The translations under genes were made by a program, and so were the position numbers. Shown piece by piece: positions 1-64,000 of a DNA stretch of 64,000 bases (positions are counted from its first letter, which is position 1; every line of letters begins with the position of its first letter). This stretch comes from an uncultured virus (IMG/VR IMGVR_UViG_3300042542_003718) (lineage: Duplodnaviria > Heunggongvirae > Uroviricota > Caudoviricetes > Herelleviridae). Below the pieces are notes generated by a model that was not told the DNA's origin, ran no database searches, and saw only the letters and a program-made list of their open reading frames with translations. Location of the stretch: the IMG/VR virus record IMGVR_UViG_3300042542_003718; one strand, given 5' to 3'.

Positions 1-95
1 CTGAAGCACAGGACGAACAAGAACCCCATCAAGAAGAGGACGCGGGCGAGGAAGTAACAAAATCACTTACAAAAAGATTTACAATAGATATTTAG
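1..95 (+). CDS. 3' end of upstream gene, probably portal protein (partial)
   Basis: Open frame from nt 3 reads EAQDEQEPHQEEDAGEEVTKSLTKRFTIDI* (TAG 93-95). Acidic tail with a KS motif just before the head genes; portal call rests on position only. Confidence 0.35.
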   Translation, partial: EAQDEQEPHQEEDAGEEVTKSLTKRFTIDI

Positions 96-141
96 TTTCT
101 TATACAATGATCCTTGAACACAGTAAACAAGGATTAAAAAG

Positions 142-1974
142 ATGTTTAGATACTCATTTATCATTGATTCATTGATCAAGGCAATGACTCATAAGTATAT
201 TCGTAGAATTCCCAAGGGAGTAACCAAGACCGGCGCAACAAAGTATATTTATTACTACGCAGGGCAAGAAGGGCATGGCAAGGGAATTGCACACGATGAA
301 GAATTGACCGCCGGCGCTTCTTTTGCATTCGGTGAACATGAAAAAACAAGATATCATATGCACATTGTACTTGAAGCGGGGGACAAGTTAACATTGAAAT
401 ACGACGATGGCGACAAAAAGGGGCAAACTGTCACAATGACAAAGAAGGAATTTAGAGACCTACTACATAAAGAACATGCATCAAGTATTCAAAGCGCAAA
501 AGAGAAGGCGCATAAGCAATTAAAAGACTTTCAAGCAGGTAAAGAGAAGGGCGTAAAAGTGAAACAAAGTACACTTGATAAGCTTGAACAAAGAGTAAAG
601 AACATTGATGAATTAGCGCCAACAAAAGAAGAGAATGAGGATGTTGGAGGCACTGTAAAAGATGGAGTAAACACACTAGACAACCCGTCACCAGTGAAAC
701 AAGTAGAACCGAATTTTCAAGGTAGCGTGGACGCCCCAGAATTCACATTACGACTACTTGCAAAGACCGCTTTAATGCGTATTAATCCAAAAGTACATAA
801 AACAATTTTCATTCAAAGTAATAAGGACGCCGGCAAAATTGAAATCTATGTAGAGAAGGCTAATCAATCCGGCGATATTGTTCTTGTTCGCTCTATAGAT
901 AGTACCGATACGCCCGATTTATCAATTACCGCATCAACAAAAGATATACAAAGTGTATTAGGTCAAGACGTAGTAGGATTTAGCCCCGTATTCAAGTATA
1001 AGGACAATGCTTTATACTTTGTTTCAAGAGTTCCACAAAATGAGCTTTCACCTAGTGAGCGGCGGACAAATGCACGACCAATACGAGAAAACGCATTCTA
1101 TAAAATTCCTGTAAATGATTGGCAAAAACCAGAAGAGAAACAAGGAACAGCGCAACAAAAGGGCGCTGAATCTGTTGTAGATCGCTTGAAACATTATAGG
1201 AATCTAATTGAAATTGCAGACTCATTATCATTTAAAAAAGTACCAGGTACATCATTGCATATTAGGGGCGTCGATCAAGCATTATTAGACAATCAGAAAC
1301 CATTAGAGGATATACAAAAAGATTTAGTTCTTAATGACAAGGTTAATATTGACGGGGTACCGAACGCAAGTATCAATCATCTCTTAGAATCGCTTGAAAA
1401 CAAAGATTATACACACCCCGACGCCCCAAAAGTAGAATATGGAGGAAAGAACCCGTTTATGATTGTAAATAAGAGATGGGACACAAAAGAACAAACACGA
1501 TGGGAGAACGTAATAAAACCGGCGCTTAAAGAACTAGGATTAAAGCGCTATGAAATGATGGATGTGAACAAAAATAAAAAAGTTCAAGAGGTAACCTATA
1601 GAATACCTTTACATTTCTTAAATAACAAACCTGAAGGCCCTGAACAAGCGCTAAAAGATTTATTCGATGATACAAAAGTTCCAGAAGTTAAATATGCACC
1701 TTTGACAGAGAAACAACAAAACTTGATCACAAAGTACAATAAGAGTGATGTAAAAGGTTTCAAATCTTTTGTGTTTGAAGATGACAGCGTTGGCGATGAG
1801 ATTGAAAATGAAGAGATGGGCAGCAAGGACCCCGATAAACTTTATATCTATGCAGAAGGGACATACGCCGATAGGGAAGCATTGAACAAGTTAGGATTTA
1901 AATTTGTTCAAAAGAAAGAGGGCGAAAAGAACGTCTCTTATTATAAATATAAAGCGCCAATTTCTAAGCTATAA
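142..1974 (+). CDS. Head-associated polyvalent-type protein, paralog 1 (constant N-terminal module + unknown C-terminus)
   Basis: First ~155 aa similar to 5422 and ~115 aa to 8304; AAGGA SD; located in head module. Confidence 0.7.
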   Translation: MFRYSFIIDSLIKAMTHKYIRRIPKGVTKTGATKYIYYYAGQEGHGKGIAHDEELTAGASFAFGEHEKTRYHMHIVLEAGDKLTLKYDDGDKKGQTVTMTKKEFRDLLHKEHASSIQSAKEKAHKQLKDFQAGKEKGVKVKQSTLDKLEQRVKNIDELAPTKEENEDVGGTVKDGVNTLDNPSPVKQVEPNFQGSVDAPEFTLRLLAKTALMRINPKVHKTIFIQSNKDAGKIEIYVEKANQSGDIVLVRSIDSTDTPDLSITASTKDIQSVLGQDVVGFSPVFKYKDNALYFVSRVPQNELSPSERRTNARPIRENAFYKIPVNDWQKPEEKQGTAQQKGAESVVDRLKHYRNLIEIADSLSFKKVPGTSLHIRGVDQALLDNQKPLEDIQKDLVLNDKVNIDGVPNASINHLLESLENKDYTHPDAPKVEYGGKNPFMIVNKRWDTKEQTRWENVIKPALKELGLKRYEMMDVNKNKKVQEVTYRIPLHFLNNKPEGPEQALKDLFDDTKVPEVKYAPLTEKQQNLITKYNKSDVKGFKSFVFEDDSVGDEIENEEMGSKDPDKLYIYAEGTYADREALNKLGFKFVQKKEGEKNVSYYKYKAPISKL

Positions 1975-2038
1975 AAAATTTACAAAATAACCTGTTAAAA
2001 AGTATACAATGATCCTTGACCATAACAAGGATGATAAA

Positions 2039-2839
2039 ATGTTTCGATTTACCCCGCTACTTAAAAGCATGTTTCCGCTAGATTTGCATGCACACGCACG
2101 CTTTGACGAATTAAAAATGATCATTGCTAGCAAATCCACCAATTATACACCCGAACAGATTTACGACATTGTCAAAGATTGCATACTTAACGAATTTACA
2201 TTCTACATTGATTATTTAGAAGATTTGTATCATCTATCTCTTAACATGGATTCGATGAACTACGCAAACGCATTGAAACAAGTAAAAGAGAAAATACTTG
2301 ACCCCGAATTTATGGGCATGGTTGCCAGTGAACTTTATGAAGATTTGTATCAAAACGACTTCCAGTTTCTGAATTTGCCTATTACTTTTGATGATAAAGA
2401 AATTACTATGTGGGCAAGAAACTTTTTAAAAGGTGAGATTACCGGCGTAGCGGCGAACGTGCTTAGATCGGGCAAGTTTCAAAAGTCAATGAGTTTCAAT
2501 GTGCCTCAAGCGGTGAGAAACGCAGCTAAAAGAGGCCTTGAACTTCGTAGGGAAAACAAGCGGGGCGGGCTTAGTAACGAACAAGCAAGTAACTTGGGCA
2601 TAGGTTCAGGCGTACAACGTGCAGTCAATTTGAGTGAAGGTAAAGTTTCACTTCAAACACTGAAGCGCATGAAATCATTTTTCGCCCGTCATAGAGTTTA
2701 CAAAGAGAAGGGGTATCACAAAGACAAAACAAGCGCTTCTTATATCTCTTGGATGCTATGGGGCGGAGATGCAGGCGACGCATGGGCAACAAGAACACTT
2801 GAACAATTAGAAAAGAAGGAGAACCAGAATGAAAATTAA
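2039..2839 (+). CDS. Head-associated protein with conserved C-terminal 'RMxSFFxRH...WxLWGG' phage domain
   Basis: Likely start MFRFTPLLKSM at 2039 after an AAGGA SD. C-terminal ~115 aa match a domain I recognise as often fused to phage head/portal proteins. Confidence 0.6.
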   Translation: MFRFTPLLKSMFPLDLHAHARFDELKMIIASKSTNYTPEQIYDIVKDCILNEFTFYIDYLEDLYHLSLNMDSMNYANALKQVKEKILDPEFMGMVASELYEDLYQNDFQFLNLPITFDDKEITMWARNFLKGEITGVAANVLRSGKFQKSMSFNVPQAVRNAAKRGLELRRENKRGGLSNEQASNLGIGSGVQRAVNLSEGKVSLQTLKRMKSFFARHRVYKEKGYHKDKTSASYISWMLWGGDAGDAWATRTLEQLEKKENQNEN

Positions 2840-12165: not shown

Positions 12166-13596
12166 ATGAGTTTCAATTCATTAAATATCCCACAAGCAAA
12201 CGGGCTCGTTTCCGCTGCTGATCTAGCTGATTTAAACAGCGCCCTTCGCAAGTCTGCAACTATTGGCTACCAAACCCCCGCCGGCATGCCCGCTGGTGAT
12301 ACAGGTTCTTTAAGCCCTTTAGTTCCTCAAAGCATTGAAAACATTTTGGCAAGCGCTACTTATAGCATGAAACAACTTGCTTTATGGCCTGCAATGCCTA
12401 AAGTATCTGTGACTAATACCTTGCACGAATACGCCGTAATCAATTCTCATGGCTTAGATATTGATCCATTTATTAGCGAAGGTTCCGCCGGTACTACAAA
12501 TCGCTCTGAATATCAAAGAAAGTCAATTCGTATCAAGTACTTAGCTGAAAGAAGAGAAGTAACTGACGTAGGAACCTTGGTTGGCTTGATTGGCGCTAAT
12601 CAAAATGCAATCGCATTAGAAACAGAACGCGGCACCCTCTCTTTACTTGCTAAGCTTGAAAAAGCAATGTTCCACGCTAAAGAAAGTAATAATCCTTTAC
12701 ATTTCGATGGTATCATTCATCAAATTGAATCCTATAACAACGGTTCAAATGTGTTTGATGCACGCGGCGCAAGTCCATCACCTAGACTTCTTCAAGATAT
12801 CTTGGCTAAACTTTATTCTGCGCCTTTATATGGTACTCCAGACTGTATCTATGTAACCCCAGATATTCATGGCGAATTGATCAAGTTTGCTGTTCAATTT
12901 GGCCGTCATGATCAATTGGTTCTTACTAACTCTTCATCTATTACATATGGTACTCAAGAAATTTCTATCATGGGCCCAGTCGGACCAGTACCAGTAAAGA
13001 GCGCCCCATTCTTGGCGAACAATGGCAAAGCACCAGACACAGGAAGCGCAACCACCGGCGCCGCATCTACCCCTGTTCTTACTTCTGCTGTTGTTGCTAG
13101 TGATTCCGCTTCTCAATTTATTTCAAGCGACGCCGGCGATTACTTCTATAAGGTCGTAGCGATCAATAATAGCGGTTATTCTGCTCCTGTTACTTCTGCC
13201 TCTAAGACAGTCGCCGCCGGTGAAAAAGTAACTTTGACCATCGCTCAACAATCAGACGCAATCTATTTCAAGATTTTCAGAACCCCTGTAGATCGTCCAG
13301 CTTCTGAAGCGGTCTTGATCAACGAAGTTCCCGCAACAAGTGGCGGCGCTACTGTGTTTGTTGATCGTAATGAAAACTTAGCAAATGGTCATAAGATGGT
13401 ATTTGTTCAACATAGTTCCGAAATTATGGAATTTGCAAAGTTACTTGACTTCTTCAGACGCCCCCTCGCTGAAGTACAAACCAGTAAACCATTCTTGCTC
13501 ATGCTCTTTGGTTCACCTATTGTTAAAGTTCCTTCTAAGTGTTGGATTGTTAAGAATGTTCGTGTTGGTTCAAGCTTGATTGAAACTTTAGGCTAA
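12166..13596 (+). CDS. Major capsid protein (SPO1/Twort-like type)
   Basis: ALRKS..GY..P N-terminus, L.PQSIE and LHFDGI motifs, Ig-like insertion; follows protease and scaffold. Confidence 0.85.
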   Translation: MSFNSLNIPQANGLVSAADLADLNSALRKSATIGYQTPAGMPAGDTGSLSPLVPQSIENILASATYSMKQLALWPAMPKVSVTNTLHEYAVINSHGLDIDPFISEGSAGTTNRSEYQRKSIRIKYLAERREVTDVGTLVGLIGANQNAIALETERGTLSLLAKLEKAMFHAKESNNPLHFDGIIHQIESYNNGSNVFDARGASPSPRLLQDILAKLYSAPLYGTPDCIYVTPDIHGELIKFAVQFGRHDQLVLTNSSSITYGTQEISIMGPVGPVPVKSAPFLANNGKAPDTGSATTGAASTPVLTSAVVASDSASQFISSDAGDYFYKVVAINNSGYSAPVTSASKTVAAGEKVTLTIAQQSDAIYFKIFRTPVDRPASEAVLINEVPATSGGATVFVDRNENLANGHKMVFVQHSSEIMEFAKLLDFFRRPLAEVQTSKPFLLMLFGSPIVKVPSKCWIVKNVRVGSSLIETLG

Positions 13597-13689
13597 GTTT
13601 ATTATTTACTTATTTAATATGAAATTATGATAATATGAGGGCATAGAATAAAAGTTCTAGATCGTCAAAGTTCTAGATTAAGGTGTCCC

Positions 13690-39507: not shown

Positions 39508-39524
39508 ACACAACAGGAGAACCC

Positions 39525-42859: not shown

Positions 42860-42860
42860 A

Positions 42861-46425: not shown

Positions 46426-46740
46426 TTAAATACCTCGTTCCCATGCTGTCAATGTGGCTGTTACTTCGTCTAAATTGTCATTGAAGATTACTTTCACTTG
46501 CTCAAATAAAGGGGCATCTTTGCCGGCGATCATCACTGTATCAAGTTCACTTGCTCCTAAGATATGAGACTTAAAGTCACTTTCACCACAGGGCAAAATG
46601 TAAACGTCAAAAGTGCCCCCGCCAAGATTACTACATGAAACTTGAACATTTGAGGGATAGCGGGCAAAGTCTACACGTGAATTGCTGCGTGTAAAAGTTA
46701 CTTGATTTATATCAGTTAACTTCGTTGTTTGGTAAGTCAT
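46426..46740 (-). CDS. Hypothetical (possibly structural) protein
   Basis: AAGGAG SD; upstream of the fibre gene. Confidence 0.6.
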   Translation of the reverse strand: MTYQTTKLTDINQVTFTRSNSRVDFARYPSNVQVSCSNLGGGTFDVYILPCGESDFKSHILGASELDTVMIAGKDAPLFEQVKVIFNDNLDEVTATLTAWERGI

Positions 46741-50103: not shown

Positions 50104-50856
50104 ATGAAAACTAATCAAATTTATCATGGCGATTGTCTTGATTTGCTACCGAATATTCCTAGTAAATCTGTTGATATGATCTTGTGCGATTTGCCTTATG
50201 GAACTACGGCCTGTGAATGGGATTCTATTATCGACATGGGGCAACTTTGGCAACAATATGAACGAGTTATCAAGGATAATGGGGCAATTGTGTTGACGGC
50301 ATGCAATGAATTTACATTCTTATTATACAACAGCAATCCTAAGCTTTTTAGATATAGATGGATTTGGGAAAAGAACCTATCAACTAATTTTCTTCATGCA
50401 AAGAAACAGCCCATGAGGAATTTTGAAGATGTTTTGATCTTTTATAAGAAGCAACCTACTTATCATCCTATTAGCTTTAAATTTGGGAAAGAAGGGAAGA
50501 GAAAGGCACGTAATAGAGAGTGTGAGCAATGGAATTTAAAAAGAACGGATAGTGTGGTACATGTAAATCGTTTACCTACAAGCATTTTATCTTTTGATTG
50601 CGAATCACGAATTAATTCAATCCACCCAACACAAAAACCGGTAGCCCTGTTTGAGTACCTAATCAAAACCTATACCAATGAAGGCGAAGTAGTCTTAGAT
50701 AATTGTTCAGGTTCAGGGACTACAGCGATTGCGTGTTTAAATAGTAACAGGCGGTTCATTTGCATAGAAAAAGATGAAACCTACTACAAGAAATCACTTG
50801 AACGCATAGCGAACCATGAACCTCTTTTACATTTACAAAATATCAATGAAAACTAA
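50104..50856 (+). CDS. N6A/N4C DNA methyltransferase, beta class, paralog 1
   Basis: DLPY (IV), HPTQKP, DNCSGSGTT (I). Confidence 0.9.
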   Translation: MKTNQIYHGDCLDLLPNIPSKSVDMILCDLPYGTTACEWDSIIDMGQLWQQYERVIKDNGAIVLTACNEFTFLLYNSNPKLFRYRWIWEKNLSTNFLHAKKQPMRNFEDVLIFYKKQPTYHPISFKFGKEGKRKARNRECEQWNLKRTDSVVHVNRLPTSILSFDCESRINSIHPTQKPVALFEYLIKTYTNEGEVVLDNCSGSGTTAIACLNSNRRFICIEKDETYYKKSLERIANHEPLLHLQNINEN

Positions 50857-50918: not shown

Positions 50919-51311
50919 ATGGATGATTTACAAAGAACACTGATGATTGAAGAGATGATGGAGCGGGGCGAAGTTTACGAAGGTTATCGGGAAAATCAAA
51001 AGTTCATACTTGAGCATAAACGATTTTACAACAAATGCACAAAAGAACGCTTTCTAAGTGAATTTTCTTACGATTTATCTTGGGGCGAAATCGCTTTAAA
51101 ACTTGGAATTAGTAAATATTCCGCCCGCGAACTTGGGATTTATTATGGTATCCATAAGAAACAAAAGAACAAGAATAGAACTGTGACAGATGCACAACTT
51201 ATAGAAGCATTCAAAGAGTATCCACGTAAAGCAATCAAAGAGATCAAGGATGATTTGAAATTAAGCTTCTCTACTGTTTGGCGAAGAGCAAAAGAACTGG
51301 GCTTACTATGA
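50919..51311 (+). CDS. HTH DNA-binding protein
   Basis: Two HTH-like segments (EIALKLGIS; EIKDDLKLSFSTVWRR). Confidence 0.55.
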   Translation: MDDLQRTLMIEEMMERGEVYEGYRENQKFILEHKRFYNKCTKERFLSEFSYDLSWGEIALKLGISKYSARELGIYYGIHKKQKNKNRTVTDAQLIEAFKEYPRKAIKEIKDDLKLSFSTVWRRAKELGLL

Positions 51312-51363: not shown

Positions 51364-53550
51364 TTAAATGATACAAGCGCCGCCCGCACATGCTAGCTCT
51401 TGGGCCTGTGTTGTCTCATCTGTGCCCTCTAAAACGCTATCAAAGTCAACTGCATTGCTTGATCTAAGAGATACCCATAATTCGAATGCGTCCGCTCGTT
51501 CTTGCTTGCGATTGAGCGCAAAGCTCAAGGCGCTTTTATATCTATCTTCATCTTTATGTTCTAAGTATTCGTGTTCAATCTGTTCAACCTCATTAAAGTA
51601 CATGTTTTGATTTTCTATGTGATCATATACCGCTTTGAATGGGGGTTGTTGGTAGTCATAATCACCGCTCATGCTTAGGAATGATACACCACAAAAATAC
51701 TCTTGATTATCAAAGACAAATTCGCCCGCCTGTTCCCATTCGTTAGGGCGTACGTTGCAAGTATTTGATACATTATGATCAGAACCTTCAAGGGATTTAG
51801 GGCGTGCGTTGCCATTCTTTACCCATGAATTATAGACCATCTTAACAAGTGATAAGAATTCTGTTGCTTTGAGATCGTTTTTAAACACATTTTCGGGGTT
51901 GCATTCTACAGCGAAGATCAAACATTTATCAGTTCCATTCGCCGCCCATACACTGTTTTTCACCGCTTGGGGGTTAAGTTCCTCAAACTTTTGAACAAGT
52001 GCGGAATCGGCGGGAACTTGTACATGTCTTAGAAACCGGCGGGCGTGTTCGGGGTGAATGCCAGATGCACAGCCCAAAATTACGGAAGCGGTCCCGCTAG
52101 GTTTTACACATGTAATTCTCGCCGCCGGTTTGATACCTATTTTCTTTGAAAATTGCTTATTGATTACGATTGCAAATTCAGCAAGCGACTTGAGCAAAAA
52201 TGATGCCCGATCTTCTTCATGCTTGAAAAAGAAAGCGGAATTGGCTAGACCGGTCAACGATACCCCTAACAATGCTTCACGCTCTACAATTTGCTCACTT
52301 ACAGGGCCTAAGTAGTCTGATTTAGTATAACTTGCCTGCAATGTGCCAAGTTTTACAGCGTTCTTCACCGCTACATAGAACGCATCAATTGAGTCGATAG
52401 AGAAATCTTTAAACTTAGATGCGTTAACCTCTGTCAAATTGCATGCTTGCCAACCGCTTTGAAATGTATAGCCTTGATCTTCATATTTAGATCTATGTTC
52501 GGGGTTGATCAAGTCTAATGTGTACTCTTCCACAATTTGCCCTTCTTTGTCCTTGATGAGCATAGGACACATAGAAATTTCGACGCATGGATTGAAACAG
52601 AACTCTGTTGACTCGGTAAACACGAATCCAGGTTCGCCCCATTGTGGCACATTGTCTAGGAATTTCTTCATGAAATCTTGTTTGTCAAGTTTATTTTTCA
52701 AGGCTACCGCTGAAATATTGGCCCTTGCTCTATATGGTGCATCTTTCCACCAATTCCCAGTTTTAGCGGTCCACATGTCCGAATCATCCATGCTGAAAAT
52801 TGCAATGGTTGCACTTCTACGCACGCCACCAGATAACACGCAATCAGACGCAACGCACACGATATCAAGGCAATCAATACTACGTAGATTCATCCCCGCC
52901 CTTGATACAAGTATCTTTTCAATCATTTGTAAACTGAATTTGAGAGGCACAGGCCCAGGCGCTTTACCACCATGAGACAAAGGGGAGCCCTTCTTTCTAA
53001 TCAGTGAATAATTGAAGATGGGCATGGTATCAGATTGACCAAGATAGAACTGAATAAGGGCATCAAGCGCATCAGCCCAGCCCTCAATCGTATCTTTGAT
53101 CATGACTACCTTCATTTGTGCATTGTTAATTTGATCAGATGAGATCACAGGGGGCAACTTTGAAACGTGGTGCTTTTGTACAGAATAACCCACGCCACAG
53201 CCACACAGAAGAAGCCATAGGGATTCAGCAAAGAAGCGGGGGCGGTCACAAAACGAAGTTGTACAATTAAAAATGCGCCAAGGCTTATCAAGTATCGCCT
53301 TGCCTCCGAATTGCAATGATCTTTGAGAACCTAGAATATCTTTACGCTTTAGTGAATCTTCGATCTCGTTCAAATCCTCAAAGATTTCAATGTTATCAAT
53401 GAACTTTGAGGCGTGCATATTCATAAGCCTATCTACAGACTCGCCCCAGTTCTCACGCCGTCTCTTAGATGGTAGATACTTTGCGTAGGTTTGTTTAAAT
53501 GTGAAATTGGCTAGGTTGCTGCGTTGAATATCCATGTTTATTTTCTCCAT
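51364..53550 (-). CDS. nrdJ: Class II (B12-dependent) ribonucleotide reductase
   Basis: FNC, GGVRRSA, NPCVEI, TCVKPSGT, C-terminal CAGGAC; no small subunit in the window. Confidence 0.9.
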   Translation of the reverse strand: MEKINMDIQRSNLANFTFKQTYAKYLPSKRRRENWGESVDRLMNMHASKFIDNIEIFEDLNEIEDSLKRKDILGSQRSLQFGGKAILDKPWRIFNCTTSFCDRPRFFAESLWLLLCGCGVGYSVQKHHVSKLPPVISSDQINNAQMKVVMIKDTIEGWADALDALIQFYLGQSDTMPIFNYSLIRKKGSPLSHGGKAPGPVPLKFSLQMIEKILVSRAGMNLRSIDCLDIVCVASDCVLSGGVRRSATIAIFSMDDSDMWTAKTGNWWKDAPYRARANISAVALKNKLDKQDFMKKFLDNVPQWGEPGFVFTESTEFCFNPCVEISMCPMLIKDKEGQIVEEYTLDLINPEHRSKYEDQGYTFQSGWQACNLTEVNASKFKDFSIDSIDAFYVAVKNAVKLGTLQASYTKSDYLGPVSEQIVEREALLGVSLTGLANSAFFFKHEEDRASFLLKSLAEFAIVINKQFSKKIGIKPAARITCVKPSGTASVILGCASGIHPEHARRFLRHVQVPADSALVQKFEELNPQAVKNSVWAANGTDKCLIFAVECNPENVFKNDLKATEFLSLVKMVYNSWVKNGNARPKSLEGSDHNVSNTCNVRPNEWEQAGEFVFDNQEYFCGVSFLSMSGDYDYQQPPFKAVYDHIENQNMYFNEVEQIEHEYLEHKDEDRYKSALSFALNRKQERADAFELWVSLRSSNAVDFDSVLEGTDETTQAQELACAGGACII

Positions 53551-53612
53551 GGTTTACAGTGATGAAAGTTCTTAAGTATAATTCTTTAAATGCCAGTAAA
53601 CAATTTTATTTT

Positions 53613-54059
53613 TTATCTTGTGTACTCAATCTCAATGAGTTCTTGAATTTCCTGATTTACTTCTTTTACTTCTGTTTCAATGGTCAATTGAATCTCTTTC
53701 ATTTCTTTTGCGCCCTTGCCTACATAGAAAAACACAAGAGAAAGAGACAACGCAAACAAAGTAAATTCGCTAAATGTAAGTAGTGAGACAATATCAACAA
53801 ATAACAGGGGCAACAAACAGGCAATTAGAAAACAAGTAAAGATCGTAATTGCTTCTTTTCGTTGTCTATAAAGTTCTTTTTGAACAAGTAACAATTTTTG
53901 AAGGGTTAAGCGGTAAACCATAAGGTTCATTAAGTCAACGCCCGCTTGTTTCAAGTCAATTTGTTCGGGGTTGGGATTGATTTCGTTGTCTTGGTCGATC
54001 ATCGTTTTTTGTGTCCTTTTTGTGAGTTTCTTTGATCCATTGTTGAACAATCCAGGCAT
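53613..54059 (-). CDS. Membrane protein (2 TM)
   Basis: Two hydrophobic helices. Confidence 0.55.
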   Translation of the reverse strand: MPGLFNNGSKKLTKRTQKTMIDQDNEINPNPEQIDLKQAGVDLMNLMVYRLTLQKLLLVQKELYRQRKEAITIFTCFLIACLLPLLFVDIVSLLTFSEFTLFALSLSLVFFYVGKGAKEMKEIQLTIETEVKEVNQEIQELIEIEYTR

Positions 54060-54353
54060 TCATTTTTGTTCATCCATATTCAAAATAAATTGATTATTGA
54101 TACCGGTAACAGTGAAATTTGCATCACTGTTGGCGGGGTGAATTTTTACTAGAAACTTGCCACTAACGACCGGATGAAAATCAATTTCCCAGTTATCAAA
54201 CACGCGGTAAATGTTTTTATCTGTCACCTCTGCAATCATTGAAGCTGCTTCTATCAAAGAATACATAGATGAAAACTTAGTAGGGATTCCCATTTCTTTT
54301 TCATGGTCACATTTGATTATAAAGTCTATTTCAAACTTTTCGGGCGTTCTCAT
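54060..54353 (-). CDS. Hypothetical protein
   Basis: ORF within the operon, GGAG SD. Confidence 0.55.
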   Translation of the reverse strand: MRTPEKFEIDFIIKCDHEKEMGIPTKFSSMYSLIEAASMIAEVTDKNIYRVFDNWEIDFHPVVSGKFLVKIHPANSDANFTVTGINNQFILNMDEQK

Positions 54354-55059
54354 AGGTTCTCCATAGTTCAGATTTCATTTGTTCTAGTTCTTTTTTAACG
54401 TAGATTGATTTGTCTAGTAGCTTCATAGATTCAGGGAATAGGCACGCCGTAATCTGTTTCACAGCGCTTGCAAACTCTCTAATTTCTTCTTGTGCGTGTT
54501 CATCAATGCGTAGCGTTAAAAAGTGCATAATCGCCTGTAAATCAGCCTTCCAGATACAAGAAGAGTACATACCTACGGGCAATTGTACGCGTGCTTGTTC
54601 CCTGCATATACCTTGTTCAAGCATCCACTTATAATTATCATAGCATGTTTTATAGGTTTCTTCTAGTCTTGCGAATGCCTCTAGTTCAACATTGTTTTCA
54701 ATTTGCCCGTAACTTGATTGCTTGCTTGTTGGGTGCTGCTTTCTCCATAGTACAGGCTTAAAGAACTCTTCTTTGATTTCTACATATCGCCCGCTTACCT
54801 CATTCCACGAACAGCCGATAACGTGCTTCATCCATTGCCTAAGAACAAAAATAGGCGCTTTGACTCTAAATTTAATCGTTGCCATTCTAAAGGGTGATGT
54901 ATGCTCATGCTCCCATAGGTAGTTCATCAGTTTTGCATCTTTATCAGTGAAATCTTGAGTTTGTGCGCCAAAAGACACGCGGGCCGCGTTTACGATTGAA
55001 CAATCATCGCCGAATACATCGACCAGTTCAACGAATCCTTCATATACATTGATTTTCAT
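54331..55059 (-). CDS. thyX: FAD-dependent thymidylate synthase
   Basis: AARVS, HTSPF, SWNEVSGRY, REQAR, LR...HAQ.EI. Confidence 0.9.
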   Translation of the reverse strand: MKINVYEGFVELVDVFGDDCSIVNAARVSFGAQTQDFTDKDAKLMNYLWEHEHTSPFRMATIKFRVKAPIFVLRQWMKHVIGCSWNEVSGRYVEIKEEFFKPVLWRKQHPTSKQSSYGQIENNVELEAFARLEETYKTCYDNYKWMLEQGICREQARVQLPVGMYSSCIWKADLQAIMHFLTLRIDEHAQEEIREFASAVKQITACLFPESMKLLDKSIYVKKELEQMKSELWRTYENARKV

Positions 55060-55091
55060 TTTTCTTGTCCCTGTTTGCTAGTTTCAAGATA

Positions 55092-55625
55092 CTATTCTAT
55101 TTTGTTCAAATATAATTCGTTTATTTTAGATACTAAATCGGGCAAGTCTGTATTAGGTACTAAGTCTACTTTGTAGGGTTGTAAATCCTTAGTGTTCAGG
55201 GACTTTTTAGACTCATGCGCAAAGTTTCTAAAGGGAATAAGAAACCATTGATCATCTGTATCTTTGGGCGTGAGACAAACAAGGATACAGGCAATAAAGC
55301 CCCACCGGTCAAGAAGTCTAAGTTCGTCAATCTGTTTTTCATTGATTGCGTCTAGTGTGATCATTGTACTTGATCTGTACTTTAGTTCAAAGAGTCCGCT
55401 TTTACCATTGCTTAAAAAGATTTCAAAGTCTGCGCCCGCTGCTCCAGTGTTCACCGCTAAAAACCTATGATTACTTAAGTTCTTTGATACTCTTACATAT
55501 GGTTCAAATCTCTTTTTGATTAGTGCGCTATCAGTGCTTAGATAGTACGTATTCAAGCGGTCAATAAGGCGTTCATAGTAATCGCCCGCCCGCTTCGATT
55601 TCAAGCCCCGTCGTATATTGTCCAT
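55092..55625 (-). CDS. recU: RecU-like Holliday junction resolvase
   Basis: G..YE..I...N..Y, ADF...FELK, Q...L pattern. Confidence 0.7.
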   Translation of the reverse strand: MDNIRRGLKSKRAGDYYERLIDRLNTYYLSTDSALIKKRFEPYVRVSKNLSNHRFLAVNTGAAGADFEIFLSNGKSGLFELKYRSSTMITLDAINEKQIDELRLLDRWGFIACILVCLTPKDTDDQWFLIPFRNFAHESKKSLNTKDLQPYKVDLVPNTDLPDLVSKINELYLNKIE

Positions 55626-55675
55626 TTCGTTCTATGCTCCTATGTGTAAAAGAGCATCATAACAGTTTAACCCGA

Positions 55676-55870
55676 TTAAAGCATATTAAAAAAATATTGT
55701 ACAATTAAACACCAACCGACAACGACAACAGGGATCAAGATCACTCCTAAGATACTAAGAACACAGGTAGCCACGAACGAAAAAACTTCATTTAAAAATG
55801 TATTCTTTGTTGTCTTTGTCTCTTCTTTTTGCACGATTGGGAATAGTCCGCATGGTTCAGGTTTTCTCAT
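55676..55870 (-). CDS. Small membrane protein
   Basis: Hydrophobic C-terminus; ATGA overlap. Confidence 0.45.
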   Translation of the reverse strand: MRKPEPCGLFPIVQKEETKTTKNTFLNEVFSFVATCVLSILGVILIPVVVVGWCLIVQYFFNML

Positions 55871-56196
55871 TTGCTACGTACACTTTCTCTTGATTCAAGT
55901 TCATTGATTTCTTGTTTGATAAATTCGAGTTTAGAGGCCAACAATGATTCAAATGTATCTTTTTCGCTTAGGTTAAAGCGTAGGTACTTTGTTGTAAAGT
56001 GACGGCCAAGGGATACGTGAATAAATCTGTAATCATTGAATACGTTGAGTACAATGACTACATCTACTTCACCGATACACGCACTCAATAGAACTTCATG
56101 CAATTCTTCTTTGTTGTCTAGTTCTAAGCGGCGTTCTGTTACTTCCCAAGCGAGGCCGGATGGTTCAAGGCCGGCATTTAGTAAATTGGCGATCAT
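55867..56196 (-). CDS. Hypothetical protein, paralog of 56218-56502
   Basis: MIA..LLNAGL; identical SD/start region. Confidence 0.65.
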   Translation of the reverse strand: MIANLLNAGLEPSGLAWEVTERRLELDNKEELHEVLLSACIGEVDVVIVLNVFNDYRFIHVSLGRHFTTKYLRFNLSEKDTFESLLASKLEFIKQEINELESRESVRSK

Positions 56197-56217
56197 TTGT
56201 TTTCTCCTGTCTCTTTC

Positions 56218-56502
56218 TTAGTTTGATTGTGTGTATTGCTTAACAAATTTACAAACATCCACAAGCGCCTCATCAAGGCAACCATCAGCAAATTCAATTT
56301 GTGTAGCATGGTAAACAAGGGCGCTAATTGAAACATGCACATATTTTGTATGGTCCGCATAAAAGATTGTCATGGTGACATAGCGGCCAAGATAGTACGC
56401 AAACACTGTGAAGCTTTTTTCTTCTGTCTCACTTGCGTAGTCATTGATTTGGGCAACGTTCAAGCCAGCATTTAGCAAAGTGTCTTTGATTTGTGCGATC
56501 AT
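56218..56502 (-). CDS. Hypothetical protein
   Basis: GGAGAAAACAAATG start at 56502. Confidence 0.65.
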   Translation of the reverse strand: MIAQIKDTLLNAGLNVAQINDYASETEEKSFTVFAYYLGRYVTMTIFYADHTKYVHVSISALVYHATQIEFADGCLDEALVDVCKFVKQYTQSN

Positions 56503-56532
56503 TTGTTTTCTCCGTAGTGTGTGATCGTTTTT

Positions 56533-56608
56533 GTTAAGGTACTTTCTAAATAACATACGGTTTTTACTTTGTCAATAAATTTTACAAATTAAATTGAAAA
56601 TATTTTAC
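56533..56608 (-). promoter_or_regulatory. Sigma70-like promoter, same family as 3356/7295/21588
   Basis: TTTGTAAAATTTA-TTGACAAAGTAAAAACC identical to the 21588 copy; CCTTAAC leader. Confidence 0.75.
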
Positions 56609-56751
56609 TTGTCTTCTTCAGATAGTTTTTCATAGTCGAGTTCATTGATTACTTTTTTGCTTAGTTGTCAATAAATTCTACAAAATAAACACCGATCTTT
56701 TGATTGATACATATAAGCATAGTTCATAAAATCAAAGAGAAAGGATAAATC

Positions 56752-57132
56752 ATGTACGATTACGAATTACAACAATGCACCATAGAACATCCGCCCCTTG
56801 ATACCCCGATCATGTATCAAGGTACTTTTGAATTAGCGAAGCATGATAGAAGAGAACCGATTGATTTTGTTCTCTTTAACTTGCCCCTTGTTCTCATCTT
56901 TCTTTTTTGCTTAGTGGCTAGGCTGCTAAAGAAGCCCAGTAGGCAAATCGACCATTTCACCATTCAAACAGATACTAGAATAAATCAGTTACGCCTTAGA
57001 ATTGAAACACTAGAAAGACAAAGTAGACAGGACCCATTGAACCTAAACGCAAAGATTAACAGGTTGGAAGATATACTAAGATCACTTGAGACACCAGCCC
57101 CATTTTTACCAAAAAACACAGATCAGGACTAA
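56752..57132 (+). CDS. Hypothetical protein (TM + coiled coil)
   Basis: AAGGA SD; one TM segment. Confidence 0.55.
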   Translation: MYDYELQQCTIEHPPLDTPIMYQGTFELAKHDRREPIDFVLFNLPLVLIFLFCLVARLLKKPSRQIDHFTIQTDTRINQLRLRIETLERQSRQDPLNLNAKINRLEDILRSLETPAPFLPKNTDQD

Positions 57133-57226
57133 AGGGCTAATTTTGCCCCTGTTTGTACTATGTCGCCCCGCCTAAAAGTTGCGTTTTAGTTAGGATATTG
57201 GCTAATAGTTACGATCTTAACTGTAC

Positions 57227-57445
57227 ATCTTAACTAAAAAATATTGTTATATTTCAATACTTTACAAAGATGATTAAGATTATTAAGATAGTTTAAGGCT
57301 TAATGATAAACTAGAAACACATAAGAAAATAAATTATGTATTTTGTGTTTATATATAAGAGTATAGAAAAAAAATTAATTATCTTGATCATCTTAACTAG
57401 CATGAGCTAACTTATTGATCTATAACAATATTTTCTAGTTAAGAT
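57227..57445. repeat. 31-bp inverted repeat with AT-rich spacer (copy 2)
   Basis: Arms 57227-57257 and 57415-57445 match 28/31; extra ATCTTAA units at ~57214, 57390, 57468, 57487, 57496. Confidence 0.8.
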
Positions 57446-57570
57446 GTTTTTTTTCGTACCTTTTGGCATCTTAACGAGGCTGCCCCATCTTAATCATCTT
57501 AATTTTTGAGGCCTAAAAAGAAAACAAGTATCATGAAAACCATAGACCAGAACCAAAAGAGAGAGCGAAC

Positions 57571-58266: not shown

Positions 58267-58989
58267 ATGAAAAAGAAATATAGTACGCGGGACTTTTTGA
58301 AACCTAAGAGCACATGTGAAGGGGCATTGATTGCGACGCGCCGCGCTTTAGCTGATTGTGAAGTACGGGGGTGGCTTGCGGAAGATTTGGGCGTCTCATA
58401 TTCAACGTTTTGCAATTACCTATCCACATATGAGGACAAGGCAAACATATTGACTACGTGGTCAAAACATTGGGAGATGTCGCCCGCAATACTTCAGAAA
58501 ATAGTTCTTATTAATCCGGAAATTCCTAGCATCCTAAAGACTACTAGGATGACAGAAATCAAAGCGTCTCAAGTACTAGCTAATTTAAAATTTTGTGTAT
58601 CCATAGTACAAAGAAACCTAAATCAATCAATACTTGATCAAAAGATAGCTATTCGCAAATGGACGGGCCTAAATAGTGATTATGCAATCTTAGCCCCTAG
58701 CCTGTATCACTGTTCAGAAGTCCTGATTGATACAAGCATTGACGAGGGCGATTGTGAATGTCATATTGACGAACGAATTCTTTTTATCGTGGCAACGTGG
58801 GGCGGATGGCAGCTAAGGGCGGAAATCGAACATTGGTTAACAAATGTAGCTACGATTTTTCGGGGCGTGTCTCTTGGTTACTATCCACATGATCAACATG
58901 TAGACTTTACAACATGCTCAATTAAGAAGGCACCTGTAGATACGCTTGAAAAACATAAGCTTGATCAAATTAGAAAAATCTTTGTTTAG
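58267..58989 (+). CDS. Hypothetical protein with N-terminal HTH
   Basis: WLAEDLGVSYSTFCNYL. Confidence 0.5.
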   Translation: MKKKYSTRDFLKPKSTCEGALIATRRALADCEVRGWLAEDLGVSYSTFCNYLSTYEDKANILTTWSKHWEMSPAILQKIVLINPEIPSILKTTRMTEIKASQVLANLKFCVSIVQRNLNQSILDQKIAIRKWTGLNSDYAILAPSLYHCSEVLIDTSIDEGDCECHIDERILFIVATWGGWQLRAEIEHWLTNVATIFRGVSLGYYPHDQHVDFTTCSIKKAPVDTLEKHKLDQIRKIFV

Positions 58990-58999
58990 AAAGTATGCT

Positions 59000-59842
59000 A
59001 TGAAACCACTTCTTAAATATCCAGGCGGGAAGCTTGATGAACTTGTTCATATTTTGCCTGTGTTGCCTACATATAAGAGATATGTTGAACCATTTATTGG
59101 CGGGGGCGCTTTATACTTTTTCTTAGCACCTGATCAAGCCTGTATCAATGATCTAAATAGTAATGTGATCAATTTTTATAAGACAATTAGAGATGATTAT
59201 GACTTGTTCATGAACCAGATTACAAAGATACATGAACTCTATCTACACAATCAAAATAGATACGCTAAGCAATGCGCCCAAGGTATGGAGAACCCAACAA
59301 ATGAGAATGAAGCTTTATACTATGCCCTACGAAACGCGTTCAATGGTGAACCTTCTGACTATTTGCCCGCCGTCCTATACTACTTTATCAATAAAACAGC
59401 GTATGGAGGCCTTACACGATACAACAATAAAGGGCGGTTCAATGTACCATTCGGGCGCTATGCTTCTTTTAACATTGATAGCGTGAGTAAGTATCATAGT
59501 ACGTTACTACAAAATACACAGATACAAAATCAAGACTATTCAAGCATCTTTGAGCACATAGAAACAAGTGATTTCATGTTTCTAGATCCGCCCTATGATT
59601 GCAAGTTTCATGAGTATGGTAATCAAGAGATCAAAGATGCAGATAATGAAGCATTTCAGAGGAGACTAGCAGCCGATTTTAAGAATTTACATTGTTCGGC
59701 GCTGATGGTAGTAGCAGAAACACCATTGATCAAAGATTTGTACGCTAATTATATCTTTGCCAGCTATCAGAAAAAGTACGCCGTCAACATTAAGAACCGG
59801 TTCAATCAAGAAGTAAAGCACTTGATCATAAAAAACTATTAA
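59000..59842 (+). CDS. Dam-like (alpha class) adenine methyltransferase
   Basis: KYPGGK, EPFIGGG, NVPFG, FLDPPY. Confidence 0.9.
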   Translation: MKPLLKYPGGKLDELVHILPVLPTYKRYVEPFIGGGALYFFLAPDQACINDLNSNVINFYKTIRDDYDLFMNQITKIHELYLHNQNRYAKQCAQGMENPTNENEALYYALRNAFNGEPSDYLPAVLYYFINKTAYGGLTRYNNKGRFNVPFGRYASFNIDSVSKYHSTLLQNTQIQNQDYSSIFEHIETSDFMFLDPPYDCKFHEYGNQEIKDADNEAFQRRLAADFKNLHCSALMVVAETPLIKDLYANYIFASYQKKYAVNIKNRFNQEVKHLIIKNY

Positions 59843-61858: not shown

Positions 61859-62105
61859 TTTTTTATATAGTTTCAATGGTTGTGTTTTTGTTACGGCGCT
61901 TCTGTACTTGCTCATATGGATTTTGAAGCTTGTCCACGAACTACGATTTGTACACATTGGCGCCCTTCGCATGTTCGCTTTAGGCGTGTTACTAGGTTTC
62001 TTTGTGTACTTCTTATTCATGCTTAGTTTACGAGCGCCGGCGATCATTGCGTCTTTCATGTTTGTTAATATGATCATCGGTGCGTTGGAAGGTGAGGGGC
62101 AATGA
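61851..62105 (+). CDS. Membrane protein
   Basis: Three hydrophobic segments. Confidence 0.5.
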   Translation: MVDFLYSFNGCVFVTALLYLLIWILKLVHELRFVHIGALRMFALGVLLGFFVYFLFMLSLRAPAIIASFMFVNMIIGALEGEGQ

Positions 62106-63115
62106 AAACTAATCAAATTTATCATGGTGATTGTCTTGATCTGTTGCCCAGTATACCGAGTAAATCTGTTGACATGATACTTTGTGATTTACCGTATGGA
62201 ACTACAGCTTGTGCGTGGGATTCAATTATCCCTTTAGATAGATTATGGAGGGAATACGAACGAGTAATCAAGGATAATGGGAACATTGTTTTAACCGCTC
62301 AAGGTATGTTCGGGGCTAAGCTAATGACTTTCAGAGAAACATGGTTCAATCATGACTATGTATGGATAAAGAACCAACATTCAAACTTCGCTTTAGTAGG
62401 TATCCAGCCACTACGTATCTTTGAAAATGTACTTGTATTCAGACCACCAAGAAAAGACGATATAGATAGAGCATTTAACAAAGAACTAAGGGCATATTTC
62501 AAGCAAGTAAATGAGTTTATAGGTTTAAATAGATCACAGATAGAACAGATCATAGGACATATGGGCTATCATCATTCTTACGGCGTGACGGGTTGTCAAT
62601 TTGATCTATGTACAAAAGAAACCTACGATCAATTGATAGCGTGTTTCAAGATTGACCAGATGCAGGGCTTTTTGAATTATGAAACTTTGCAATCTATGAA
62701 AGAGAAACAAATTTATCTTCCATATACTTTTAACTTTGATGCTCGCATTAAAAGTACAAAGCAAGCAAAGAACAATGATTTCAATAGGCAAATGTACGGT
62801 GACAAAACAAATCAAAAGTATAAAGAACACATAAGCAAAGAGTATGAAAATTATCCTAGAAACACGCTATATTTTGACTGTGAACGAGGGCAACACCCAA
62901 CACAGAAGCCCGTCGCATTGTTTGAATATTTAATAAGAACCTATTCAAACGAGGGCGAAGTAATCTTAGATAATTGTTCAGGTTCAGGGACTACAGCGAT
63001 TGCGTGTTTAAATAGTAATAGGCAATATATTTGCATAGAAAAAGATGAAACCTACTACAAGAGATCACTTGAACGCATAGCGAACCACGAACCGCTTTTA
63101 CACATGGGAAAATAG
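62102..63115 (+). CDS. N6A/N4C DNA methyltransferase, beta class, paralog 2
   Basis: DLPY, HPTQKP, DNCSGSGTT; longer central region than paralog 1. Confidence 0.9.
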   Translation: MKTNQIYHGDCLDLLPSIPSKSVDMILCDLPYGTTACAWDSIIPLDRLWREYERVIKDNGNIVLTAQGMFGAKLMTFRETWFNHDYVWIKNQHSNFALVGIQPLRIFENVLVFRPPRKDDIDRAFNKELRAYFKQVNEFIGLNRSQIEQIIGHMGYHHSYGVTGCQFDLCTKETYDQLIACFKIDQMQGFLNYETLQSMKEKQIYLPYTFNFDARIKSTKQAKNNDFNRQMYGDKTNQKYKEHISKEYENYPRNTLYFDCERGQHPTQKPVALFEYLIRTYSNEGEVILDNCSGSGTTAIACLNSNRQYICIEKDETYYKRSLERIANHEPLLHMGK

Positions 63116-63116
63116 T

Positions 63117-63311
63117 ATGAATGGGAATAGGCTAATCGTTCGCTTATATATCAATGAACTTTGTATCTTAGATTTTTGTGAACCTTTAGAAAGAGTATAC
63201 AATCTACTTGATCAAGAGATCATTGACCGAATAAGAGACCTAGAAAACAGGTTTGACGGCGTAGCAAAGAAAGCGCTATTGACCATGAGCAAAACACAGG
63301 AGGCCCCTTGA
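63117..63311 (+). CDS. Hypothetical protein
   Basis: 64-aa ORF coupled to its neighbours. Confidence 0.45.
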   Translation: MNGNRLIVRLYINELCILDFCEPLERVYNLLDQEIIDRIRDLENRFDGVAKKALLTMSKTQEAP

Positions 63312-63589
63312 ACAAGTTTGAAAAGATAGCTAGCAACCTAGCCACCATTTTATCAATGAAAAATGACGCATATGGCAACGCATTTGACAAGACAACACAG
63401 ATACTCACGCTTCTTTATCCCAATGGGATCAAGGTAGAACAGTTCAAGGATGTTCATGTACTCATTCGCATGCTTGACAAGATCAGCAGGATCGCAAGAG
63501 ATAACGACCCTTTTGGAGAAAGTCCCTATAAAGATTTAGCGGGCTATGCTATTTTGTCACTTGCTAGGGATGAGAACGATGAAAACTAA
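63308..63589 (+). CDS. Nucleotide-modification-associated (DUF1599/Nmad1-like) protein
   Basis: KNxAYG.AF...R..DK..R...D..GY pattern. Confidence 0.65.
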   Translation: MNKFEKIASNLATILSMKNDAYGNAFDKTTQILTLLYPNGIKVEQFKDVHVLIRMLDKISRIARDNDPFGESPYKDLAGYAILSLARDENDEN

Positions 63590-64000
63590 CAACGTTTATC
63601 ATGGCGATTGTCTTGATTTGTTGCCAAGTATTCCAGATAAATCCGTAGATATGATCTTATGCGATTTGCCTTATGGAACTACAGCTTGTGAATGGGATTC
63701 AATTATCCCTTTAGATAGGCTATGGGCACAGTATGAACGAGTAATCAAGGATAATGGGAACATTGTTTTAACCGCTCAAGGTATGTTTTGTGCGGAGTTA
63801 ATGTGTTATAAGAAAACATGGTTCAATCATGATTACGTATGGATAAAGAACCAACATTCAAACTTCGCTTTAGTAGGTATCCAGCCACTACGTATCTTTG
63901 AAAATGTACTTGTATTCAGACCACCTAGAAAAGAAGATTTAAATATTCAATTCAATTTAGAGCTTCGTACTTATTCTCATAAGATATTATCTTTTATCAA
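63579..64000 (+). CDS. N6A/N4C DNA methyltransferase, beta class, paralog 3 (runs off the window; not in ORF track)
   Basis: MKTNNVYHGDCLDLLPSIPDKSVDMILCDLPYGTTACEWD...; near-identical blocks to 62102. Confidence 0.9.
   Translation, partial: MKTNNVYHGDCLDLLPSIPDKSVDMILCDLPYGTTACEWDSIIPLDRLWAQYERVIKDNGNIVLTAQGMFCAELMCYKKTWFNHDYVWIKNQHSNFALVGIQPLRIFENVLVFRPPRKEDLNIQFNLELRTYSHKILSFI

Follow-up and report, generated by a model that had tools for sequence, protein, structure and literature searches.

The window, a 64,000-nucleotide stretch that comprises most of a ~69-kb freshwater myovirus genome, carries CCAG almost exclusively in one orientation, and the sister words GCAG, GGAG and CGAG are arranged in co-oriented blocks (Table 1). 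Both patterns probably reflect selection by host Type III restriction-modification systems that need inverted pairs of sites, with CCAG as a predicted 4-bp specificity. For phage T7, it is textbook knowledge that Type III sites are lost from one strand; the blocks of GCAG, GGAG and CGAG are new beside it. Most likely the phage uses the escape known from T7 and EcoP15I, here unusually strong and extended to several words.

Table 1. Oriented site runs, minority-orientation CTGG sites and genes of the window
Feature	Position	Strand	Remarks
One-way CCAG, whole window	1..64000	+	167 on +, 3 on -; ~1 site per 380 bp
Minority-orientation site	12293..12296	+	variable 5' part of major capsid gene
Minority-orientation site	42956..42959	+	accessory stretch
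Minority-orientation site	51297..51300	+	end of HTH gene
Reversed GCAG block, 8 sites	12215..15007	-	within + strand structural genes
Reversed GGAG block, 5 sites	36024..37422	-	within + strand replication genes; p = 0.002
Reversed GCAG block, 16/17 sites	42427..46685	-	
Reversed GCAG block, 11 sites	51450..57480	-	
Major capsid protein	12166..13596	+	phrog_752, E 1.4e-62
C5-cytosine DNA methyltransferase (phage)	19587..21098	-	PF00145
Replication module	32580..41411	+	RepB-like primase-helicase, exonuclease, SF2 helicase, PolA
N6/N4 methyltransferase (phage)	50104..50856	+	PF01555; family expanded in relatives
Dam-like (D12 class) methyltransferase (phage)	58946..59842	+	PF02086; absent from G004
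Second N6/N4 methyltransferase (phage)	62102..63115	+	PF01555

CCAG/CTGG is the most strand-asymmetric 4-mer pair of the window. A sequence-only reading had noted by eye about three CTGG on the + strand, at 12293, 42956 and 51297, among common CCAG, and about 14 CCAG with no CTGG in 51.4-56.5 kb; the computed counts are exactly those three sites against 167, and 14 and 0. Read on the + strand, + genes contain 132 CCAG and 2 CTGG, - genes 30 and 1, and intergenic DNA 5 and 0. The bias therefore runs with the DNA strand and not with transcription, as that reading had proposed, and codon shuffles agree. Pooled over all genes, these predict 108 CCAG and 86 CTGG in + genes and 33 and 30 in - genes. 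Shuffling synonymous codons within each gene (300 shuffles) gives 107.7 +/- 9.0 CTGG, with a minimum of 84, against the 3 observed, and 152.8 +/- 10.3 CCAG against 167 (z about 1.4); no other 4-mer approaches CCAG in same-direction bias across both gene classes. Neither outcome named as refuting in that reading, CTGG close to expectation or a skew that reverses with gene direction, was obtained. Trp codons follow a C in 0/153 cases in + genes versus 5/59 in - genes, and the base after a CCA codon is G in 68/172 versus 1/31. CCAG orientation switches six times versus 80 expected (rank 1 of 118 4-mers), and the sites are spaced a little more evenly than random (CV 0.87). The earlier proposal of a CCAG-containing site holds for CCAG itself and fails for any longer motif, the site being a bare 4-mer with no preference in the adjacent bases and no longer word accounting for the bias.

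Relatives were fetched and oriented with the major capsid protein gene, which is <30% identical to that of the best isolated phages; all near-complete relatives are collinear. Close relatives have CCAG/CTGG counts of 157/0, 186/8 (G004) and 71/10 (G003, with 135 CCAG expected). The bias is present in the same direction in most of the low-GC clade, across subclades with differing palindrome-avoidance sets, and is absent from high-GC relatives, including one that has the same replication genes. L018 (78% capsid identity, collinear, 7/7 genes on +) is reversed, with CCAG 1 versus 16 and CTGG 9 versus 18, although this is a single 7-kb fragment and could represent a local block. The G003 subclade shows a local reversal, a run of 3-4 sites. 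L071 and L072 (27% capsid identity) lean the opposite way (CCAG 4 versus 13 and 7 versus 11) and are too distant and too short for use. CCAG positions turn over like those of any 4-mer, with 106/135 kept in G002 (median 4-mer 0.80), 78/143 in G004 (0.52) and 23/138 in G003 (0.37). One-step neighbours had changed to CCAG at 25/1715 places in G002 and 53/1853 in G004, and to CTGG at 0/1722 and 0/1800.

The minority site at 12293 is missing from 38/38 aligned related loci (duplicates included), and its place is polymorphic in run X7; that at 51297 is missing from 2/2 aligned relatives. The site at 42956 has no aligned homologue, and alignments with G002, G003 and G004 all leave out 42.36-43.9 kb, the stretch that contains it. 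Of the CTGG of G004, 7/8 sit in 11.8 kb without alignment to the window. For CCAG, a distance effect or a comparison of head-to-head with tail-to-tail pairs would rest on the three minority sites, which are too few to show either. The phage population is polymorphic (contigs of four runs, with ~1740 differences, 40 of them listed); RNA runs account for small shares only.

The sister words form blocks even in stretches where all genes point one way. GCAG switches 4 times in 1-19.5 kb versus 14.9 expected, and 0/5000 permutations were as low. GGAG runs in reverse across 42110-48157 (17 sites) and 53304-56510 (10 sites), where CCAG is forward, and GCAG remains forward across the short GGAG block in the replication genes. 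A single degenerate S-S-A-G site was ruled out, as different words point different ways within one stretch. Switch-scarcity ranks for CCAG, GCAG, GGAG and CGAG are 1, 2, 3 and 8 of 118 4-mers in the window, 2, 4, 3 and 1 in G003, and 1, 3, 2 and 5 in G004. Inverted pairs of the sister words are scarce within about 1-2 kb: within 1 kb there are 16 versus 123 for GCAG (head-to-head 10/61, tail-to-tail 6/62) and 7 versus 89 for GGAG (4/45 and 3/44), and gaps are widened at both kinds of block wall. There is a correlation between GCAG blocks and GGAG blocks (cross ratios 0.25 and 0.38), and both largely track gene direction. The best 5-mers of the window by orientation order are AGACC, ACACC and ACAGC. 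GCTGA forms three perfect blocks in G003 (53, 13 and 12 sites; 2 switches versus 36) and is without order in the window and G004; this order is lineage-specific, much as defence specificities are.

Type III enzymes methylate an adenine of one strand, and cleavage requires communication along the DNA between two unmethylated sites that are inverted relative to each other. The window shows the corresponding pattern, with direct repeats tolerated and inverted pairs removed. Type ISP enzymes are known to cut only head-to-head pairs, by convergent translocation, which does not demand the equal scarcity of tail-to-tail pairs seen for the sister words; Type III is therefore favoured. Of the suggestion that a Type III or ISP-like system selects against head-to-head sites, the selection on inverted pairs thus stands and the restriction to head-to-head pairs does not hold for the sister words. 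Each of the four words carries adenine on just one strand, and CCAG is asymmetric and within the 4-6 bp given for Type III sites in the accessible part of PMC3936762. The sister words are themselves 4-bp Type III m6A sites (HpyAXI GCAG, Hal24586II GGAG, H. influenzae ModA allele CGAG), and CCAG has the same N-N-A-G form; the hosts of these enzymes are unrelated to the phage habitat and the specificity type is the only common feature. By eye, AGACC, ACACC and ACAGC also occur in the REBASE-derived Type III list of Rusinov 2018, which holds only six asymmetric 4-bp sites. The asymmetric CCAG motif that the sequence-only reading would have sought in REBASE is absent from that list, with 0 matches to CCAG as a Type III site there or in the text-form supplements of Rusinov 2018; in the supplements of Blow 2016 and in PMC5930826, the sole CCAG entries are of low fraction and Type II/IIG (6.8% m5C, 55% unknown, 30.9%).

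The appeal to T7 is borne out by the available portion of PMC12707154, in which all 36 EcoP15I sites of T7 are head-to-tail, while T3, with two pairs of inverted sites, is restricted. As far as that portion goes, the phage resembles T7 in the genome-wide single orientation of an asymmetric adenine-on-one-strand site, independent of anti-restriction proteins. It differs in that a 4-bp word with 167 sites is ordered across oppositely transcribed operons with three minority sites, and in that several words are involved at once, most of them in blocks, with a predicted enzyme.

A host population would thus carry Type III (mod-res) systems with short asymmetric sites, presumably with a separate enzyme for each of the four words, and a phage with all its sites one way would escape cutting. 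The full order of CCAG may reflect an enzyme that is common or long retained among the hosts. Two causes may keep the sister words in blocks: selection would act chiefly on opposed neighbours no more than about 1-2 kb apart, and local codon use, for GGAG also Shine-Dalgarno sites, would make gene direction decide which orientation is cheaper. The winning strand would be arbitrary and the few minority sites recent mutations or imports. Every test run agrees with selection against inverted pairs of such a site. Several observations sit less easily with Type III enzymes. The blocks point to a range of 1-2 kb, whereas early in vitro work found no distance dependence, polarity persists across subclades that differ in palindrome avoidance, which is unusual for a fast-changing specificity, and CCAG is not among the Rusinov 2018 Type III sites. 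T3 is restricted with two inverted pairs (PMC12707154, available portion), yet these phage genomes keep 3-10 minority sites plus several block walls; exposure must therefore be intermittent or graded.

A tentative extension, doubtful at present, is one-dimensional ordering, in which several inverted-pair-sensing enzymes would penalize opposite neighbours within about 1-2 kb and the sites would coarsen into blocks; CCAG may then be the end state, one block spanning the genome. In its boldest form, the enzymes may be a new non-classical family with interchangeable 4-bp S-S-A-G specificities.

It is rather unlikely that the sensor of inverted pairs is non-classical, whether a hemimethylation system related to MANTIS/BREX whose orientation preference is graded, Type ISP or an undescribed 4-bp relative. 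In the accessible part of bioRxiv 10.64898/2026.09.23.753747, MANTIS (Gao_RL) acts more strongly on inverted pairs than on direct repeats, with a graded effect, and about 40% of the virulent phages tested are depleted on one strand. Graded action would account for the tolerated minority sites and walls, the sites also fitting intermittent exposure, and the absence of CCAG from the Rusinov 2018 list is in keeping with such a sensor. Single-strand depletion as a footprint of inverted-pair sensing is shared with the MANTIS/Type III depletion in Pseudomonas phages; however, in the same part of that source the sites are 6 bp and counted over whole strands, whereas the 4-bp sites here show a near-complete purge and block structure, and Type III enzymes are on record for all three sister words.

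An improbable alternative is that CTGG does harm on the strand laid bare when the DNA is replicated, injected or packaged in one direction, either as a signal to primase or helicase or as the target of a host toxin or nuclease specific for single strands. The absence of a polarity switch over 64 kb, the common direction in most of the low-GC clade and the collinearity of near-complete relatives would be expected, but L018 is reversed, the G003 subclade has its local reversed run, and G008 shows no bias (rank 54) despite sharing the primase, exonuclease, helicase and PolA module at 26-48% identity. Such harm cannot yield blocks whose walls vary by word, and the replication or packaging signal offered as an alternative in the sequence-only reading is disfavoured on these grounds and by the turnover of positions.

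Codon use, mRNA-level avoidance, Dcm/EcoRII avoidance, Vsr-type repair and deamination of the phage's own 5mC are strand-symmetric processes, and it is very improbable that any of them is the cause. CTG codons are rare (28/1437 Leu codons in + genes), the phage encodes a C5 methyltransferase and the sister words partly track gene direction; nevertheless, the CCAG bias is the same for genes of either direction and codon shuffles refute this group for CCAG, CCAGG occurs 25 times in the window and the Dcm site is therefore not avoided, and G004 remains biased without the C5 gene. Chi, KOPS and other replichore-skewed motifs likewise have strong strand polarity independent of gene direction. CCAG as a positive oriented signal of this kind, or for a packaging motor, is largely refuted: its single orientation, its excess over a first-order Markov expectation (167 versus 93) and its spacing would fit, but the excess vanishes under the codon null, G003 has fewer CCAG than expected, and there are no shared switch points. 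The pattern is the loss of one orientation and not a Chi-like signal, because CCAG is neither enriched nor positionally conserved.

Independent restriction-modification pressure is evident from 97 strongly depleted bipartite 3-N(3-8)-3 words in the window (none at gaps 9-12), which are Type I-like, and from the avoidance of palindromes. A longer or gapped CCAG motif was rejected, the scarcity of T 7-9 bases past its A belonging to the genome-wide Type I-like avoidance. CCA and TGG are balanced (582/616), and a CCA-directed Ssp system is therefore not the cause.

Searches for the host and its restriction enzyme, through phage protein matches, contigs and phylum genomes, found neither, and cluster look-ups and Atlas searches also gave no host. 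No near DNA match to 1-24 kb was found in 50,697 phage records, and protein matches were distant (capsid <30%, RNR 41%, terminase about 25%, primase 22-28%, clamp and C5 methyltransferase 23-40%). The Dam-like gene matched two gut MAGs at about 50% among genome contigs. For 44-64 kb, 401 genomes of the phylum of G010 gave 12 weak DNA matches; of the four shortest, none lies in a CRISPR array. A cyanobacterial host, the first guess, was rejected; HIP1 is absent, and palindrome sets (5 rows per genus) were not diagnostic. Shine-Dalgarno use is strong in the phage, which argues solely against hosts without it. PADLOC found no Type III system among 13 phage proteins, and a promoter scan of 55.5-58.5 kb gave no more than chance level.

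In its accessible part, the survey of cultured phages by Rusinov 2018 (PMC6286503) reports neither systematic strand-asymmetric avoidance nor Type I avoidance; unlike those phages, this clade shows both one-strand loss and Type I-like avoidance very strongly. Counts over whole strands cannot reveal the block pattern, so that earlier surveys may have missed such cases. The CCAG prediction provides a testable 4-bp specificity and a methylome fingerprint for finding the host. If general, the approach would offer a sequence-only route to inverted-pair-sensing defences and their range in cells. Were the ordering proposal true, block lengths and wall gaps would measure the in vivo communication range of the enzymes, and a scan for orientation blocks would read asymmetric specificities (CCAG; GCTGA in G003) and thereby the host defence repertoires of uncultured phages. 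Inversions and gene imports in such phages would be constrained by site orientation.

CCAG and its reverse complement CTGG are the most asymmetric of all the 4-mers compared in the window. On the + strand of the whole window CTGG occurs only at 12293, 42956 and 51297, the approximate count made by the sequence-only reading, against 167 copies of CCAG. Read on the same strand, + genes contain 132 CCAG and 2 CTGG, − genes 30 and 1, and intergenic DNA 5 and 0. A null in which synonymous codons are pooled over all genes in two gene-direction classes predicts 86 CTGG and 108 CCAG in + genes and 30 and 33 in − genes; only one other 4-mer, GCTG, passes this two-class filter, and weakly (28/73 and 31/52). 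Shuffling synonymous codons within each gene (300 shuffles) gives an expectation of 107.7 ± 9.0 for CTGG (minimum 84) and 152.8 ± 10.3 for CCAG, indicating that one orientation has been lost and the other stands at expectation. The skew does not flip with gene direction, and both gene classes deviate in the same direction under the codon nulls, as anticipated from the claims that it extends to minus-strand operons and follows the DNA strand rather than codon usage. Positions adjacent to CCAG show no base preference.

Relatives were oriented with the capsid gene on the + strand before counting (see table); these genomes share ancestry and are not independent samples. The capsid-locus survey covers 63 of 72 viral loci, with L064–L072 (<45% identity) excluded and near-duplicates retained. 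Gene order is collinear with the window in all five close records compared. CCAG positions are retained no better than those of the median 4-mer, and aligned positions one step away from CTGG almost never turn into CTGG. The three CTGG sites of the window are private or lie in accessory DNA. Seven of the eight CTGG in the relative G004 lie in DNA unaligned to the window, which is probably imported; nine of the ten in G003 lie in aligned core genes, suggesting a more relaxed lineage. In the G003 subclade, 3–4 successive sites at the capsid gene are locally reversed. Polarity is reversed in a single fragment, capsid locus L018, which is collinear with 12.4–19.4 kb and has all seven genes on the + strand (CCAG 1 versus 16 expected, CTGG 9 versus 18 expected). 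The bias is absent from the relative G008, in which the primase-helicase, exonuclease, helicase and PolA genes are present.

CCAG/CTGG counts in relatives and locations of features (window coordinates unless a record is named)
Feature	Location or size	Capsid identity	CCAG/CTGG	Remark
G002	55.8 kb		157/0	
G006			76/0	
G004			186/8	
G003			71/10	
G005			42/5	
L078		73%	60/8	
Capsid loci, n = 9		≥93%	208/6	
Capsid loci, n = 14		86–91%	124/30	
Capsid loci, n = 5		72–78%	81/19	low GC
Capsid locus, n = 1		72%	8/7	high GC
Capsid loci, n = 34		60–68%	650/595	higher GC
GCTGA blocks	G003:C1 1319-65579			walls 43833-46525 and 58711-59954
Intergenic inverted-repeat pairs	32280-32491; 57225-57451			arms 38–52 nt, 106 and 143 nt apart
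C5 methyltransferase	19590-21186			
N6/N4 methyltransferases	50104-50856; 62102-63115; 63579-64000			
N6/N4 methyltransferases of G004	L130:477-3515			four in tandem
Large proteins	142-1974; 5422-7230; 8304-10292			repeated N-terminal region at DNA 63-616, 5343-5896, 8225-8666
Promoter-like repeat	3334; 7273; 21572; 39443; 56559; 56655			both strands
RNR interruption point	52583-52587			uninterrupted in window and G003

Orientation switches between neighbouring sites, compared with a within-gene codon null for the 118 testable 4-mers of the window, are scarcest for CCAG (6 versus 80 expected), followed within ranks 1–3 by GCAG (12 versus 64) and GGAG (10 versus 51), with CGAG at rank 8. CCAG, GCAG, GGAG and CGAG rank 2, 4, 3 and 1 in G003 and 1, 3, 2 and 5 in G004; in G007, G008 and G009 their ranks range from 10 to 117. 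The one-way blocks mostly track gene direction, yet they also occur inside all-plus stretches, where GCAG, GGAG and CGAG are the most clustered 4-mers after two homopolymers (window, G003 and G004). GGAG is a Shine-Dalgarno core upstream of many genes, a role that would tie its blocks to gene direction. Blocks of GCAG and GGAG are correlated; local disagreements in orientation (GCAG 5/0 versus GGAG 1/5 at 36–40 kb; CCAG 8/0 versus GCAG 0/8 at 44–48 kb) suggest that the words are separate targets. Inverted GCAG pairs number 16 versus 123 expected below 1 kb, 49 versus 120 at 1–2 kb, 197 versus 243 at 2–4 kb and 462 versus 481 at 4–8 kb; those of GGAG number 7 versus 89 within 1 kb and about half of expectation at 4–8 kb. 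In G003 a further word, GCTGA, is arranged in three perfect one-way blocks (53, 13 and 12 sites); it shows no order in the window or G004.

CTGAT and CACAG are ordered solely in the G003 subclade. In L067, a capsid locus of 33% identity and 65% GC, CGAG is again the top polarised 4-mer (174/28; 52 switches versus 88 expected). Two intergenic pairs of inverted repeats are related to each other, and one of them lies upstream of the primase-helicase; they may be origins, termini or operator sites. CCAG switches at neither, and walls of GCAG, GGAG and the GCTGA of G003 lie close to the second.

The pattern, as read from the phage sequence, probably reflects selection by several Type III systems, with each ordered word a separate target of restriction that would require inverted pairs. 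According to PMC3874151, Type III systems modify a single strand, and their cleavage depends on two inverted sites that are both unmethylated; they can cleave head-to-head as well as tail-to-tail pairs, leave direct repeats uncut and have their communication blocked by a bound repressor. Head-to-head and tail-to-tail pairs of GCAG and GGAG behave similarly here, which for these two words favours Type III over a Type ISP system. The proposal of Type III-type selection stands at this strength. One-strand escape is already known: T7, whose 36 sites are co-oriented much as CCAG is here, escapes EcoP15I, and T3, which has two pairs of inverted sites, is restricted (PMC12707154). GCAG is the Type III site of HpyAXI (PMC3936762), and CGAG (PMC10073500) and GGAG (Blow 2016 supplements 3–4) are Type III sites. 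Supplement 4 of PMC6286503 has 173 rows that match 'III', and a comparison by eye with all of them gives six Type III sites that are asymmetric and 4 bp long; five end in AG, and GCAG, GGAG and CGAG are among the six. CCAG is not in these rows. The best three 5-mers of the window (modest z of −4.6 to −4.2 among 470) are also in this list. No report of CCAG as a Type III specificity, or of block-wise co-orientation of several sites, was found in the open-access literature, including the accessible parts of PMC4687349, PMC8594841, PMC8262939, PMC5930826 and PMC6329791; Krueger 1995 and Meisel 1992 may discuss clustering.

Against the Type III reading, subclades whose palindrome sets differ share one polarity, which is not usual for a labile specificity; the early in vitro data in PMC3874151 show no dependence on distance whereas the inverted-pair deficit here is local; and the relative with reversed polarity, L018, is one fragment. 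A strict Type III enzyme would cut the residual inverted sites, so exposure of the phage must be patchy. The toleration of these minority sites would be better explained by a MANTIS-like or other inverted-pair system, and single-strand depletion in Pseudomonas phages is described in the MANTIS preprint (bioRxiv 10.64898/2026.09.23.753747); such an agent is nevertheless unlikely, as MANTIS has 6-bp sites and CCAG is a 4-bp word. A replication- or injection-strand cause, of which the sequence-only reading had offered the replication form, fits CCAG taken alone but does not fit the reversed L018, G008, unbiased with the same replication genes, or the blocks with word-specific walls, and is very improbable.

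The window carries myovirus markers (capsid, protease, sheath, baseplate, terminase, PolA, clamp, RNR, thymidylate synthase and four DNA methyltransferases), and its capsid protein is <30% identical to those of isolated phages. A 68,849-base contig encodes a methyltransferase identical to one of these, and the genome of a relative rated complete is 67.6 kb long, suggesting that the window makes up about 93% of its genome. Fourteen sequencing runs each contain half or more of the words sampled: 12 carry a lake, pond or freshwater label, one a marine and one a wastewater label, and the window may derive from one of these runs. The gene for the C5 methyltransferase behaves as an optional cassette; G004 lacks it, and a contig from sequencing run X7 skips it. 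The N6/N4 methyltransferases form a growing paralogue family with common ends and variable middles (two more in G004 besides the tandem, at least four in G003), which looks like specificity shuffling against host restriction–modification. Three large proteins share a repeated N-terminal region (60–87% DNA identity), the third with a ddrB-like ParB domain, and are possibly injected head proteins. A conserved AT-rich promoter-like repeat ends in a perfect −35 hexamer. In G002, G004 and G007 an insertion of ∼0.4 kb breaks the RNR gene at one shared position, a probable intein, intron or split site.

Other restriction footprints are also present. Bipartite words of the form 3-N(3–8)-3, scored as depleted at ≤15% of expectation with overlapping words counted separately, number 97 in the window, 82 in G003, 67 in G004, 15 in G007 and 13 in G008; with gaps of 9–12 the numbers are 0, 2, 1, 1 and 0, respectively. 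The listed depleted words mostly have A on the left and T on the right, which is the shape of Type I sites. S-A...T-S pairs fall to 0.67 of expectation at distance 7 and 0.76 at distance 9 in the window, and to 0.75 at distance 8 and 0.82 at distance 9 in G003. This Type I-like avoidance is strong and genome-wide in the window, G003 and G004, in contrast to the survey in PMC6286503, the available part of which reports no systematic avoidance of Type I or Type III sites, strand-asymmetric avoidance included. Short symmetric sites are avoided as well, with sets that differ between the two subclades. The phage evidently encounters many restriction–modification systems and responds by editing its own sites.
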